A DNA stretch of 31,879 nt from Clostridia bacterium (GCA_017397205.1 JAFQJX010000041.1:1-31879); one strand, 5' to 3'; shown: positions 10,724-18,488, counted from the stretch's first letter. Translations and numbers: made by a program. The notes: generated by a model not told the origin, from the letters alone.

Positions 10724-12667
<1,944 letters not shown>

Positions 12668-12928: not shown

Positions 12929-14006
12929 AGCTTCCTCCGTCGACGGATATTTTGTGATACCCCCTGTCCTCCTCAAGGGCTTCGCAGGAGGTGAGTATCA
13001 GCTGCTTTTCCTTCATTTCACGTAACACAAACTGTCGCCGCCCCTCGTCCAGCTCGCTGAGCACGTCGTCAAAGAGAAAGACGGGATATTCCCCTGTCAG
13101 GGCGTGGCTGTATTCTCCCTCTGCCAGCTTGATGGCATGCACGGAGGAGCGCTGCTGCCCCTGAGATGCAAACTGTCTTGCGGAAACGCCGTTGATTTTA
13201 ATTTCAAGGTCATCCCTGTGAATCCCGAAAAGAGAGCATCCGGCTGCCGTTTCCCGCGGCAGATTTTGCGAAAATATCCGCCTGTATGCCTCTTTGATTT
13301 CCGTTTCACACTCTCCCGTGACGTCCGCCACGTAGGAAAGTGAAAGACGTTCCCTGTCCGAGGAGATTTCCTTCATCAGCTCCTCAGCAAAGGGGGACAG
13401 ACCCTCTACGTATTTTTTTCGTCTTAAATAAATCGCCGTCGCAACCTCTGCCATTTTTTCACCCCAGGCAAGCAGCTCGTTCTGGTCAACGTAGCCGCCC
13501 TTCTGGGCAGTTTTCAAAAGATAGTTGCGATTTTCTAAAATTTTGTTGTACTCCGTACAAAAATAGAGATAGCTTTTGTCGCTCTGAGAAATAGCAACGT
13601 TGAGTAGCTCCCGCCGTCCGTCGGGACCCGCCTTGATAATTTGCAGATGCTCGGGGTGAAACAGCACCGCGCGGAAGCTTCCGATCATATCGCTGAGCTT
13701 GGAAAGCCGCACGCCGTTGCGGTGTCTTGTTCTCGTGCCCTCCGTCAGTTCATAGGAAAGCGTCTGGTCCCGCCCGTCGCCGTGATAGGAAATGCCAATG
13801 GAAAAGCCGTTTTCTCCAAAGCGCACCATATCGGCATCCTTGGCGGCGCGAAAGCTTTTTCCGCGCGCAAAGTAATAAATTCCCTCAAGGGCGTTGGTTT
13901 TTCCCTGTGCGTTTTTGCCGCTGAGGACGTTGACGCCAGGATAAAAATCTATCTCGCAGCTCTCTATATTGCGGAAATTTTCTGCCCGAAAGCGCTTGAT
14001 GTACAT
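12894..14006 (-). CDS. recF: DNA replication and repair protein RecF
   Basis: Walker A GKNAQGKTN, signature SQGQQRS and Walker B LFDDVLSELD; start coupled to the dnaN stop (TGATG). Confidence 0.95.
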   Translation of the reverse strand: MYIKRFRAENFRNIESCEIDFYPGVNVLSGKNAQGKTNALEGIYYFARGKSFRAAKDADMVRFGENGFSIGISYHGDGRDQTLSYELTEGTRTRHRNGVRLSKLSDMIGSFRAVLFHPEHLQIIKAGPDGRRELLNVAISQSDKSYLYFCTEYNKILENRNYLLKTAQKGGYVDQNELLAWGEKMAEVATAIYLRRKKYVEGLSPFAEELMKEISSDRERLSLSYVADVTGECETEIKEAYRRIFSQNLPRETAAGCSLFGIHRDDLEIKINGVSARQFASQGQQRSSVHAIKLAEGEYSHALTGEYPVFLFDDVLSELDEGRRQFVLREMKEKQLILTSCEALEEDRGYHKISVDGGSYVFTHRERTDG

Positions 14007-15151
14007 CAGCTCATGCGTACGGGAAGCAGCATATAGAAGGAGTGTTCGCCCTCCTTCTCCTCTGCGGGAACAACCGTCATTGCCTGATTGACGCTCTTAA
14101 GACCGAGGCGCAGCGTATCTGCCTCGCAGGCGCGCACGTTGTTGATCAGGTAGCGGCAGTTAAAGCCGATTGAAATCTCCTCTCCCTCGTGCTGACAGGG
14201 CATTTCGTCGTATACTCTGCCGCTGGAGGAGGTGGAAATCAGCATCAGCTTGCCGTTTGAGATTTCAATTTTTACGTAGTTGCGGCCGCTGACCTGTCCC
14301 TTTTCGTCTGCCACGAGCAGGGCTCTTTCAAGCCCGGAAATCAGGCGGTCTCTTTCCAGGGTGACGAAAATCGTCTGATCCTTGGGCTTGGTTCTTTCAT
14401 AATCAAAATACTCTCCGTCAATCAGACGAGTAAAGAAAATCAGCCCCTCGGTTTTGAGAATGGCGTGCTTTCTTGCAAGATACAGCTTGACAGTTTCCTT
14501 TTTATCGGCAAGCAGCTTGACAATTTCATTCAGAGCATGTCCCGGCAGAATAAAGGAGAAGTTTTCCTCCTCAATTTCACCAACGCTCTTGATTTCACAC
14601 TCCATGGTGCACTCGGAAAGAGAATAGGCGTCGCAGGAAACGAGCTTGATCTGATTCTGACGAATGCAGAAATAGGCACCGCAGAGGTTGGGGCGGCTTT
14701 CGTTGTCGGAGACGCTGTGAAGCACTCTTACAATCATGGAGCGCAGCTTCTCTGCCTCAATTTCAAAGCCCTTGTCGCCCGACAGTTCGGGAAGCCCGGG
14801 GAAATCGGCACCGCCGATGGCATACATGGTGAAGTTCGAGGTTTCGCAGCTGATTTTCACGGACAGCTTCTGGTCCACCTCCAGCGTAATCTCGCCGTTG
14901 TCCATGACCTTGATAATCTGCATCAGGCGCTGTGCGTTGATAATATAGCTGCCACCCTCTACCACCTCGGTTGCCTCAAAGACGGTACGGGTGCCCTTAT
15001 TCATATCGTAGGTGGAGAAGCGCACGGTGTTCCCACCCATGGTTTCTATCAGCACACCCTCCAGGGAGGTAATGGTATTCTTATTGGAAACGGTGCCCAT
15101 CACAGGATACAGGTTTTCAAGGAGCTCTTGCTTTGTAAATACAATTTTCAT
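14006..15151 (-). CDS. dnaN: DNA polymerase III beta sliding clamp
   Basis: About 380 aa; RLIDGEYFDY, IGFNCRYL, C-terminal YMLLPVR; downstream of dnaA. Confidence 0.95.
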   Translation of the reverse strand: MKIVFTKQELLENLYPVMGTVSNKNTITSLEGVLIETMGGNTVRFSTYDMNKGTRTVFEATEVVEGGSYIINAQRLMQIIKVMDNGEITLEVDQKLSVKISCETSNFTMYAIGGADFPGLPELSGDKGFEIEAEKLRSMIVRVLHSVSDNESRPNLCGAYFCIRQNQIKLVSCDAYSLSECTMECEIKSVGEIEEENFSFILPGHALNEIVKLLADKKETVKLYLARKHAILKTEGLIFFTRLIDGEYFDYERTKPKDQTIFVTLERDRLISGLERALLVADEKGQVSGRNYVKIEISNGKLMLISTSSSGRVYDEMPCQHEGEEISIGFNCRYLINNVRACEADTLRLGLKSVNQAMTVVPAEEKEGEHSFYMLLPVRMS

Positions 15152-15410
15152 TTGTTCGTTCCTTTCGGCGGCAAAAAATTATGATTGATTTGTTTTTATA
15201 GTAGGTAGTAGCAGTAGTAGAGCGGTGTCAATATGTGCAAAACTTGCGGTGATGCCGTTTTCCTCGGCTTTTCGCTGACGGAAAAAGAAAAATAGGCGCT
15301 GTCAGTATTCTGTTTGTAGTGACAAAACGAAGCTGTCGCAAAAATGAACGGAGTTATTGACAAAGGAATTGACTGTCAAATTGACAGGTTTTTGACAGGG
15401 TTTTTTTGTC
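15152..15410. other. Chromosomal replication origin oriC (dnaA-dnaN intergenic region)
   Basis: AT-rich tract 15172-15200, DnaA-trio run TAG TAG G TAG TAG CAG TAG TAG (15199-15220), GC spacer AGCGG, tandem boxes at 15226-15242 and further TGACA-core boxes to 15397. Confidence 0.88.
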
Positions 15411-16826
15411 TTACGCCTGTTTTTTTATCTTGGCGGTCAGGGTATCCACGTCACGCCTCGTGTCCTCGTTCTTTTCCATCATTTCCTCAATTTTATTGTT
15501 GGCAGAAATGACGTTTGCGTGGTTACAGCCAAAGAGAGAGCCGATATACGAGAGGGAAAAGTCCGTCAGGGTGCGGAGCAGATACATACAAACGTGCCTT
15601 GCATACACGACGCTTGCCTGTCTGCGGCTTCCCTTAATGGTATCCACGGGCACGTCAAAGTACAGGGAAACCTCGCGGAAAATGCGGTCCGCCACGAAGG
15701 TTGTTTCTTCATTTTGGGACTGCACGTCCAAAAGCGCCTTTTTGACGCTGTCCAGCGTGACGGGGGTTTTCGTCAGAAGATGCATGGCGCTCAGCTTTCT
15801 GAGAGCCCCCTCAATGGTGCGGATATTGTTTTTGATTTTCTTTGCGATATAGGTAATGATTTCAGGGGAGAGCTCCATTCCCATTTTCTCCGCCTTATGC
15901 TTGATAATGGCGGCGCGAAGCTCGGGCGTCGGGGGTTGGATATCCGCAATCAGACCCCATTCAAAGCGGGTACGCAGGCGGTCCGTCAGATTTTTGATTT
16001 CATAGGGAGGACGGTCGCTTGTCAGAATGATTTGCTTCTGATTTTCGTACATGGCGTTGAAGGTGTTGAAAAACTCCTCCTGAATGGCGTTTTTGCCGGC
16101 AATAAAATGGATATCGTCAATCAGAAGCACGTCCGCGCTGCGGTATTTCTGGCGGAACTCCGCCGTGGAGTTGCGCGAAACGCTTTCAATCAGCTCGTTT
16201 CCAAAATCCTCGCCGCGCACGTAGACGATTCTTGCATCGGGGGTGCGGACCTTGATTTCATTGGTAACGGCGTACAGGAGATGCGTTTTTCCAAGGCCGC
16301 TGGGTCCGTAAATAAACAGGGGGTTATATTTTTCCTCCAGCGGGTCGGTCAGAATTTCCTCGTCCGTCGTAAAGGACTGTGCAACGGCAAGGCAGGCGGC
16401 GTGAGCAAAGCGGTTGCTGTCGCCGACGACGAAATTATCAAAGGTATATCCCGCAACGGGCTCCTTTCTTTCAAGCAGCTCCGTCAGGCGCTCCTTTTCC
16501 TCTCTGTCGCGCCGCTCCTCCTCCTCCTCAACAGGGTCGGGAAGTGCCGCCGCCTCACGGCGAAGCTGCTCCATATCCACGTCGCGCACGGAAATTTCAA
16601 CCTGAACGGCAAACCCGAGGACCTCACGGAAGGCAGAGGAAAGGGAATCCATATGATGCGTCAGCAGCACGTTTTTCTTGAACGCATTGACGGTGGAAAC
16701 GGTGACGGTGCTGTCCTTGATTTCCTCAATCTGAAGCTCGCTAAACCACAAATTAAAAACGGTTTTTGAAAATTGACCGTCCAGAATTGCAAGCACCGCG
16801 GCTTCAATATCCTTGTAAACTTCCAT
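15411..16826 (-). CDS. dnaA: Chromosomal replication initiator DnaA
   Basis: YTFDNFVVGDSN, YNPLFIYGPSGLGKTHL (Walker A), LLIDDIHF (Walker B), RLRTRFEWGL, NIRTIEGAL. Domain IV is atypical. Confidence 0.97.
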   Translation of the reverse strand: MEVYKDIEAAVLAILDGQFSKTVFNLWFSELQIEEIKDSTVTVSTVNAFKKNVLLTHHMDSLSSAFREVLGFAVQVEISVRDVDMEQLRREAAALPDPVEEEEERRDREEKERLTELLERKEPVAGYTFDNFVVGDSNRFAHAACLAVAQSFTTDEEILTDPLEEKYNPLFIYGPSGLGKTHLLYAVTNEIKVRTPDARIVYVRGEDFGNELIESVSRNSTAEFRQKYRSADVLLIDDIHFIAGKNAIQEEFFNTFNAMYENQKQIILTSDRPPYEIKNLTDRLRTRFEWGLIADIQPPTPELRAAIIKHKAEKMGMELSPEIITYIAKKIKNNIRTIEGALRKLSAMHLLTKTPVTLDSVKKALLDVQSQNEETTFVADRIFREVSLYFDVPVDTIKGSRRQASVVYARHVCMYLLRTLTDFSLSYIGSLFGCNHANVISANNKIEEMMEKNEDTRRDVDTLTAKIKKQA

Positions 16827-16867: not shown

Positions 16868-16896
16868 ATTTTACTATAATAATAGTTATAAATCAA
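16868..16896 (-). promoter_or_regulatory. Sigma-A type promoter of dnaA
   Basis: Minus strand TTGATT, 17 bp spacer, TAAAAT. Confidence 0.6.
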
Positions 16897-17028
16897 TCAC
16901 ACACACGCGCGAGATAATAATTATTAACAATATATTTACATTTTAAAAGGAAAAAACAACAAAAAAAGACCTGTTCGGTGCATAAAAAACGCCCCCGAAA
17001 GAGATAACTGTAAAAAAAGGAGCACGGT

Positions 17029-17469
17029 ATGGATAAACAAACGTACGGGGCGCTCGTCAAGCGCCGCGCGGCAAGGACGCGGGTTACCTCCAACTGCCTG
17101 CACGCATTTTTGTGCGGCGGAGCAATCTGCGCCGCAGGACAGCTGCTGACGGAGCTGTATCTGTTTCTCGGCATGGCACAAAGGGATGCCTCCACCACAA
17201 CGACCATTACCCTGATTTTTGTTGCCGCCTCTCTGACGGGCATCGGCGTCTTTGACCGCATTGCCCGCTTTGCGGGGGCAGGGACCCTGCTTCCCGTGAC
17301 GGGATTTGCCAACGCCGTGGTTTCCCCCGCGATTGACAACAAAAGCGAGGGGCTCGTCGTCGGGGTAGGGGCAAAAATCTTTACTGTGGCAGGGCCCGTA
17401 TTGCTGTTTGCAACGCTTTCGGGGGTTGTGTGGGGGGTTATTTACTATGTTATTTCACTTTTTGCGTGA
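17029..17469 (+). CDS. spoVAC: Stage V sporulation protein AC
   Basis: AFLCGGAIC, FAGAGTLLPVTGFANAVVSPA, EGLVVGVGAKIFTVAGPV. Confidence 0.93.
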   Translation: MDKQTYGALVKRRAARTRVTSNCLHAFLCGGAICAAGQLLTELYLFLGMAQRDASTTTTITLIFVAASLTGIGVFDRIARFAGAGTLLPVTGFANAVVSPAIDNKSEGLVVGVGAKIFTVAGPVLLFATLSGVVWGVIYYVISLFA

Positions 17470-17477
17470 GGCAAGGG

Positions 17478-18488
17478 ATGCAGACGGTATTTGAATTCAA
17501 AGAGAAAATAGAGGTGTTTTCCTGGGCGTCAGCCGTGGGAAAATCGGAGCATGACGGTCCCCTCGGGCGCCTGTTTGATTTCTGGGACGAAACGGACCGA
17601 TTCGGAAAAAACACCTGGGAGCTGGCAGAGAGTGAGTTGTCTCACGCCGTCCTTGCGCTTGCGCTCAAGCGGGCAGGGCTTTCGCACCGCGAGGTGGCGT
17701 TTTTGTTCTCGGGGGACCTGCAAAATCAATGCGTGGCGTCCTCTGCGGCGCACGTAGAGGAGGAGATTCCCTTTCTTGGAATATACGGCGCCTGCTCCAC
17801 CTGTACGGAGGGGCTTCTGCTTTCGGCGGTGATGCTGAATGCAGCGGAGGAGCCGCTTGTCGGCGCCGCCGTCACCACCTCGCACAACAGCGCGGCGGAA
17901 CGGCAGTTCCGCACCCCGATTGAATACGGCGGACAAAGAAGCCCCACGGCACAGTGGACGGCAACGGCAGGCGGTGCCTTTCTTCTTAGGAGAGGGGAAC
18001 AACATCCCCACATTGTCAGGGCGATGCCCGGTATTATGGTGGACGGAGGGATCAAGGATGCCTCCAATATGGGTGCGGCAATGGCGCCTGCCGCCGCCGC
18101 AAGCATTCTGTCCTACCTCCGTCTGACGGGCACCGCCCCCGCCGATTACGACGCCATCGTGACGGGGGACCTCGGGCGGGAGGGCTCCGCCCTGCTTGAA
18201 ATGCTGCTGCGGGAAAAGGGCGTTTTTCTTGGCGACAGGCACAGGGACTGCGGCAATATGATGTATGACCCCAAGAAAAGCGACTGTCACGCGGGCGGCT
18301 CGGGCTGTGGCTGCAGCGCCGCCGTGCTGGCGGGGCATTTTCTGCCGTGCCTCGCGGAGGGAGAGTATCGGCGTATTTTGTTTTTGTCAACGGGGGCGCT
18401 TATGAGCCCCGCCTCCATTCAGCAGGGAGGCAGCATTATCGGGGTCGCGCCCGTCATTGAGCTTGTGGGAGGAAATGGAAATGGGTGA
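17478..18488 (+). CDS. spoVAD: Stage V sporulation protein AD (dipicolinate-binding)
   Basis: GKSEHDGPLG, GDLQNQC, GIYGACST, ERQFRTPIEYGGQRSPTAQWT, MGAAMAPAA, TGDLG, GGSGCGCSA, TGALMSP. Confidence 0.95.
   Translation: MQTVFEFKEKIEVFSWASAVGKSEHDGPLGRLFDFWDETDRFGKNTWELAESELSHAVLALALKRAGLSHREVAFLFSGDLQNQCVASSAAHVEEEIPFLGIYGACSTCTEGLLLSAVMLNAAEEPLVGAAVTTSHNSAAERQFRTPIEYGGQRSPTAQWTATAGGAFLLRRGEQHPHIVRAMPGIMVDGGIKDASNMGAAMAPAAAASILSYLRLTGTAPADYDAIVTGDLGREGSALLEMLLREKGVFLGDRHRDCGNMMYDPKKSDCHAGGSGCGCSAAVLAGHFLPCLAEGEYRRILFLSTGALMSPASIQQGGSIIGVAPVIELVGGNGNG

Follow-up and report, generated by a model that had tools for sequence, protein, structure and literature searches.

An altered DnaA recognition helix and TGACA-core boxes at the predicted chromosomal origin of an uncultured Clostridia lineage

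DnaA and its box are commonly taken to be almost universal. Studied DnaA boxes lie within two mismatches of TTATCCACA and keep its CACA core (review PMC4285127). The base-specific contacts to the box are made by R399, P423, D433, H434, T435 and H439 in E. coli numbering, residues that have been called conserved among Firmicutes (PMC2533591, PMC7561715). Published natural variants of the box change positions 2, 3 or 5 or, in Thermotoga, take the form of a 12-mer, and a literature search found no description of TGACA-type DnaA boxes. Here we analyse the dnaA gene and the adjoining dnaA-dnaN spacer in a 31,879-nt stretch of Clostridia bacterium DNA (GCA_017397205.1, JAFQJX010000041.1:1-31879; this whole stretch is hereafter the window, with positions counted from its first letter). 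The window is contig C210 of a metagenome-assembled genome of 1.12 Mb that is 59% complete, and its host is an uncultured, spore-forming gut Clostridia lineage.

The E. coli domain IV/TTATCCACA complex (1J1V) and the B. subtilis basal unwinding system (BUS; 8BTG) agree with this locus in domain architecture, in fold (root-mean-square deviation, rmsd, 1.0-1.3 Å), in the minor-groove Arg and H434, in a 9-mer with 5' TTA and 3' ACA, and in a box pair, GC cluster, trios and AT tract placed between dnaA and dnaN. Unlike both, the locus has TG for CC at box positions 5-6, replacements at residues 432, 433 and 436 (and at 435 in the window), and no P423 or H439. The best structural match is M. tuberculosis DnaA (box TTGTCCACA, 3PVP/3PVV; template modelling (TM) score 0.94, rmsd 0.9 Å), which shares an FG-RDH loop shorter by one residue and the lack of His at 439 (Tyr), but keeps R-D-H-T-T and the CCACA core and deviates at box position 3. 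DnaA of Epsilonproteobacteria (H. pylori box TCATTCACA; PMC5043019) has a lineage-specific T at position 5, as here, attributed to the start of helix 5, but has kept both the C at position 6 and the D-H dyad, whereas here position 6 and D433 change. In Thermotoga maritima (12-mer AAACCTACCACC) most base-contact residues and the box have likewise both diverged, but in that deep lineage the box differs in both length and sequence, whereas the putative switch described here lies within one genus, with close sister lineages keeping the ancestral pair.

TGACA boxes and a rewritten helix in the window

The core TGACA occurs seven times in the 259-bp spacer between dnaA and dnaN (15152-15410), within 168 bp and in both orientations (Table 1), while CCACA and CAACA are both absent from it. 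Its density there is 27 per kb against 1.8 per kb genome-wide (15-fold), seven copies were reached in none of 20000 shuffles, and the spacer is the top TGACA cluster per 200 bp across the assembly. The original prediction, made from the sequence alone, had listed these seven 9-mers, an oriC devoid of TTATCCACA and a TGACA-related 9-mer, TTATTAACA, upstream of dnaA; all seven sites were recovered at their positions and strands, as was the upstream 9-mer, and the window has just one exact TTATCCACA, within gyrB at 12501. Its further claim of a C-to-G change at box position 6 holds for seven of the eight spacer sites and fails for the box-6 slot TTTTGCACA, which has the classical C within a CACA core. 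We further note a near-palindrome, TTGACTGTCAAATTGACA, at 15367-15386, which is made by two overlapping inverted boxes and may be a head-to-head DnaA pair.

These sites are set in a familiar architecture. Towards dnaN, the end of the spacer reads TTTTGCACA/ATATTGACA, GC cluster, DnaA-trios, AT-rich tract. In the B. subtilis BUS, ATP-DnaA is loaded onto 3'-GAT-5' trios from two boxes of like orientation, #6 and #7 (PMC10721633). The window has this layout in full, with a co-oriented box pair, a GC cluster, an AT tract and, where at least three trios are expected, five in phase plus two, and its cumulative GC skew reaches a minimum at about 14-15 kb, the switch expected of a BUS-type oriC. Judged by its sequence organisation, the spacer is the chromosomal origin, of Bacillus type. 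Seven of the nine residues named as contacting single-stranded trio DNA in B. subtilis (PMC10721633) are identical in the window DnaA, the others being I193 to V and E223 to N.

The product of the gene matches Bac_DnaA, Bac_DnaA_C and DnaA_N with 212, 69.5 and 26 bits, all above cut-off, and thus combines an AAA+ domain III with the DnaA_N domain and the Bac_DnaA_C helix-turn-helix; Walker A (GPSGLGKTH, residues 174-182) and Walker B (LLIDDIHF, residues 234-241) are intact. The gene lies in the minus-strand order dnaA-dnaN-recF-gyrB and gives the single PF08299 match of the assembled genome (in which, at 59% completeness, a second dnaA copy is not fully excludable), as befits the bacterial DnaA initiator.

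The departure lies in domain IV, where the protein reads SLSYIGSLFGCNHANVISA. Alignment to 1J1V, 3PVP and 8BTG equates P423 with S426, R432 with C434, D433 with N435, H434 with H436, T435 with A437, T436 with N438, H439 with S441 and R399 with R402, so that of the six published contacts the window keeps only R399 and H434, the others being S, N, A and S. The helix CNHANVISA, the four contact changes, the retained basic-loop Arg and the intact ATPase motifs were all described in the original prediction, and each is present. The four changes are not of one kind, however: P423S and H439S are genus-wide and extend to lineages that use CCACA, and the one-glycine loop is genus-wide too; T435A is private to the window; and only the change at D433 is clade-specific. 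The changes particular to the clade are R432C, D433 to N/Q/K/R, and T436N. In an AlphaFold2 (AF2) model of domain IV (predicted local distance difference test score, pLDDT, 88) the predicted fold is unchanged, with TM 0.92-0.94 and rmsd 0.9-1.0 Å to the DNA-bound 3PVP and 1J1V. The loss of contact residues is, to judge from these matches, a departure in specificity residues and not in family membership. Since the BUS layout, the trio-contact residues and the domain IV fold are all kept, the origin machinery appears to be ordinary except at the step of double-strand recognition.

Helix and box co-variation among relatives

About 30 species-level DnaAs in the protein database share 54-67% identity with the window DnaA. 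Their helices fall into a derived class, C-(N/Q/K/R)-H-(S/T/A)-N (S-T-H-S-N in one case), and an ancestral class, R-D-H-(S/T/A)-T. We compared 13 derived and six ancestral origins, which belong to one DnaA clade with 100/100 support and in which dnaN stands directly downstream of dnaA, except in the relative L124, where one extra open reading frame (ORF) intervenes. The 13 derived-helix origins hold 73 TGACA, 24 TAACA and no CCACA; the six origins of RDH-helix sisters hold no TGACA, six TAACA and 23 CCACA. Canonical boxes in relatives that share the helix, which would speak against the co-variation of protein and site proposed in the original prediction, are absent, CCACA being lacking in 13/13 derived origins. 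The replacement extends to the slots nearest the trios, where box 6 and box 7 are swapped one for one: the derived origins read TGACA-nnn-TGACA-GC-CTACTA and the sisters CCACA-nnn-CCACA-GC-CTACTA.

A logo of 48 clade sites (T/A, T/A, A in 43 of 48, C/T, T, G, A, C, A) has the register of the classical 9-mer TTATCCACA, with its 5' TTA and 3' ACA intact. Within one subclade, invariant columns make up 27/40 of the TGACA cores against 79/217 of the rest of the spacer. The derived helix is likewise kept across proteins only 54-67% identical overall.

A wider survey covered 104 origins of the genus and order with recognisable trios. The 69 origins with RDH[STA]T helices carry on average 1.9-3.2 CCACA and 0.1-0.5 TGACA per origin, and the 12 with the derived helix carry no CCACA and 3-8 TGACA. 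Eight origins with RDY helices (H434Y) use mainly CAACA, and ten with RNH or KDH helices (D433N or R432K) use CAACA, TAACA and AAACA. Other helix variants thus appear to go with other cores across the genus (loci L004-L118), in what is, as far as these counts reach, a broader pattern of initiator/box co-variation.

We consider it probable that the DnaA of this clade has shifted its box preference from TTATCCACA to TTAYTGACA, or more loosely TTAYTRACA, with a matching change of its recognition helix. In this proposal domain IV would bind double-stranded boxes, two of which, co-oriented beside the GC cluster, would load an ATP-DnaA oligomer onto the adjacent trios, and the AT-rich tract would open. 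Contacts to the 3' two-thirds of the box come from the recognition helix, and those to the 5' third from Arg399. R402, the conserved minor-groove Arg, would still read the 5' TTA, and the change of the first helix turn from R-D-H-(S/T)-T to C-(N/Q/K/R)-H-(S/T/A)-N would alter the reading of positions 5-6. At residue 433, Asp would act as an acceptor for the amino group of C or A, and Asn, Gln, Lys or Arg would be able to donate hydrogen bonds to O6/N7 of G. Asp433 as an acceptor for C or A fits the way in which CCACA and CAACA replace each other where the helix is RDH. This donor/acceptor logic draws on general chemistry and on the division of the box between helix and Arg; the binding preference, the residue-to-base assignment and the order of events are all inferred. 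The genus, already without P423 and H439, is loose in its use of positions 5-6, which would probably have allowed the switch without loss of viability. Three single-base codon changes separate the two helices (CGT GAT CAC TCC ACC against TGT AAT CAC TCC AAC).

Several observations weigh against such a shift. In the window itself, the box-6 slot is the classical-type box TTTTGCACA, which lies 3 nt from the last TGACA and shares one base with ATATTGACA. Among the relatives, five TGACA stand in L043 (R-D-H-A-T), with one in each trio-proximal slot, L045 (also R-D-H-A-T) mixes TGACA with CCACA, and L132 (M-H-H) has four TGACA, while L133, 89% identical and with the same helix, has none and uses CCACA. 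Because of the TGACA in L043, L045 and L132, this core would seem to be readable by other helices, and replacement of D433 would not be strictly required; the orthogonality suggested in the original prediction is doubtful in at least one direction. The M-H-H helix of family f17 was set aside as a second independent replicate, TGACA use there not tracking the helix. Furthermore, in one C-N-H-S-N subclade (L125, L130) TGACA is no commoner than TAACA and TCACA, and the clade is not uniform at residue 433 (N, Q, K, R, T). A genome-wide excess of the new 9-mer, such as DnaA titration sites would give, was not found, with TTATTGACA at 12 copies against 6.8 expected and TTATCCACA at 5 against 3.7, counts too small to carry weight. 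In a tree from which the last 75 residues of DnaA were left out, the base of the clade is a polytomy, and helix class must change at least twice on it. A single derived clade is disfavoured by the approximately unbiased (AU) test (p=0.017). With a minimum of two changes and this test result, the history goes beyond one clean switch.

Competing accounts of the TGACA sites

A wider possibility, which we put forward tentatively, is that the genus holds a set of distinct and partly orthogonal DnaA/box pairs (RDH/CCACA, RDY/CAACA, RNH or KDH/TAACA or AAACA, and C-N-H-x-N/TGACA) and that its lineages have gone back and forth between CCACA and TGACA repeatedly by the three codon changes. This may have been helped by the short distance, only 100-300 bp, between the helix codons and the boxes, with which protein and sites would be inherited, and could recombine, as one cassette.

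It is rather unlikely that the pattern reflects relaxed specificity and drift. On that account, a DnaA without P423 and H439 would read only TTA..ACA and be indifferent to positions 5-6, the helix changes running in parallel with no causal link; in a variant of it, TG would be retained for another cause, such as a second factor or DNA shape. Positions 5-6 do vary genus-wide (CC, CA, AA, TA, TG, CG), often inside one origin, and the toleration of TGACA in RDHAT and MHH origins, the GCACA kept in the window's box-6 slot and the mixture of TAACA, TGACA and TCACA in L125 and L130 all fit indifference. Drift under indifference predicts mixtures, however, yet not one CCACA occurs in the 13 derived origins and not one TGACA in the six sisters; T at position 5 is nearly fixed, and the derived helix is strongly conserved.

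That the sites belong to another protein, for example Spo0A or an origin regulator, with DnaA recruited otherwise, is very improbable. The 0A box TGTCGAA (complement TTCGACA) and the new box, read as its complement, have TGTC in common, and in the oriC of B. subtilis some DnaA boxes are overlapped by 0A boxes. Of five clade genomes checked, four encode Spo0A, so that an argument from its absence fails. The resemblance to the 0A box pointed out in the original prediction is real, TTTGACA being one mismatch from TTCGACA, but weak: the central CG is found in none of the seven window sites and in essentially none of the 48 clade sites, the complement of whose consensus is TGTCAGTAA. Unlike 0A boxes, the sites have the register, TTA, spacing and position of DnaA boxes, and they coincide precisely with the box-6 and box-7 slots, where the loading of DnaA onto the trios has to start (PMC10721633). 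Other candidates for DnaA boxes are absent from these spacers, and domain IV is intact and conserved.

Finally, we can hardly credit a reading of the sites as sigma-A -35 hexamers, whether of dnaN or of antisense promoters, or as a cluster due to chance. The -35 consensus TTGACA does occur at five of the seven sites in the window, but seven sites in both orientations within 170 bp do not suit promoters, each of which would have one, with a -10 element about 17 bp downstream; relatives mostly have CTGACA, which does not match the -35 consensus, the shuffle test rules out chance, and the positions are orthologous to those of DnaA boxes.

Other features of the region and what the pairing means

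Table 1. Features of the origin region and dnaA in the window
Feature	Position	Strand	Sequence	Remarks
dnaN	14006-15151	-		starts at 15151
AT-rich tract (probable unwinding region), then dnaN ribosome-binding site	15152-15198	-		
DnaA-trios	15199-15220	-	CTA CTA CTG CTA CTA, 1-nt slip, CTA CTA	
GC cluster	15221-15225	-	CCGCT	
Box-7 slot	15226-15234	-	ATATTGACA	TGACA core; directly upstream of GC cluster and trios; orthologous slot CCACA in sister lineages
Box-6 slot	15234-15242	-	TTTTGCACA	fits TTWTNCACA, not TGACA; relatives carry TGACA there
Variant DnaA box (predicted)	15300-15308	-	ATACTGACA	
Variant DnaA box (predicted)	15316-15324	+	GTAGTGACA	
Variant DnaA box (predicted)	15354-15362	+	TTATTGACA	
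Variant DnaA boxes (predicted)	15374-15386	- and +	AATTTGACA (-, 15374-15382), AAATTGACA (+, 15378-15386)	overlapping and inverted
Variant DnaA box (predicted)	15389-15397	+	TTTTTGACA	
dnaA	15411-16826	-		471 aa; sole DnaA found in the assembled genome
Recognition helix start	15501-15527	-	C434-N435-H436-A437-N438-V-I-S441-A	equivalent to E. coli R432-D433-H434-T435-T436-V-L-H439-A
R402 codon	15621-15623	-		equivalent to E. coli R399, minor-groove basic-loop Arg; invariant in 30 aligned relatives
TGACA-related 9-mer	16921-16929	+	TTATTAACA	lone; about 95 bp upstream of dnaA; TAACA is the second commonest core in clade origins

Upstream of dnaA, TTATTAACA may be a weak box; TTGTTAACAA stands at a similar position in only some of the relatives. 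Neither derived-helix nor sister lineages have a cluster of DnaA boxes upstream of dnaA, where the only conserved feature is a promoter-like motif. In the window (16880-16915) it consists of a GC-alternating motif, then GATTGATTTATA, then a TATAAT-like element; the same arrangement is conserved 60-100 bp from dnaA in the derived-helix loci L003, L034, L036, L037 and L125-L128, and is probably the dnaA promoter together with a putative operator. Elsewhere, an AT-rich intergenic region (G000:C44:4657-4832; about 2060-2240 of L131) upstream of a gene for a MutS-domain-V protein holds six TGACA, including two exact TTATTGACA, which could be DnaA boxes or equally promoters. A TGACA cluster on C227 was dropped as a regulon candidate, since it lies inside a coding region. 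Across the genome-wide 9-mer counts, the clusters and the dnaA upstream region we found no evidence of a recoded DnaA regulon and no secondary TGACA cluster tied to one.

Relatives also differ in what lies around the origin. On the plus strand of the window, spoVAC and spoVAD (17029-18488) are divergent from dnaA, as in the basal relative L124, while in most of the relatives compared (L055-L058, L123, L125-L128) spoVAD and a SpoVAC/SpoVAEB-family gene are co-directional with it, which suggests an inversion beside the origin. The extra ORF of L124 (3049-3555) encodes 168 aa without a Pfam match, and more than 1 kb of spacer separates dnaA from dnaN there; the canonical box cluster of L124 sits after this ORF. 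Five loci of the SCQ subclade (L003, L037, L038, L036 and L129) have a conserved GC-rich hairpin-like element (the CGGGGTTTTGCCCG region) midway in the dnaA-dnaN spacer, which may be a dnaA terminator or a further origin element, and L021 and L023 (genomes G007 and G003) have long tandem copies of an approximately 110-bp repeat between dnaA and the box cluster. Genome G094 has two near-identical dnaA copies on contigs C62 and C70 (L039, L054), each with one in-frame TAG, for which duplication in the assembly, variation between strains or recoding are possible explanations.

The TGACA core together with the C-x-H-x-N helix makes up a new form of the known DnaA/DnaA-box system, and what we describe looks like a natural change of specificity in an essential protein-DNA pair. 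Origin finders default to the TTATCCACA motif, although lineage-specific and user-defined motifs are also offered (PMC10225481), and a default box search mislabels origins such as these. The clade would provide a natural experiment in the joint change of an essential protein and the full set of its essential sites, candidate residue-to-base rules in which position 433 is an acceptor for C or A and a donor for G, and possibly orthogonal initiator/origin pairs for synthetic biology. If the genus-wide set of pairs is real, natural variation would amount to a readable recognition code for the initiator.

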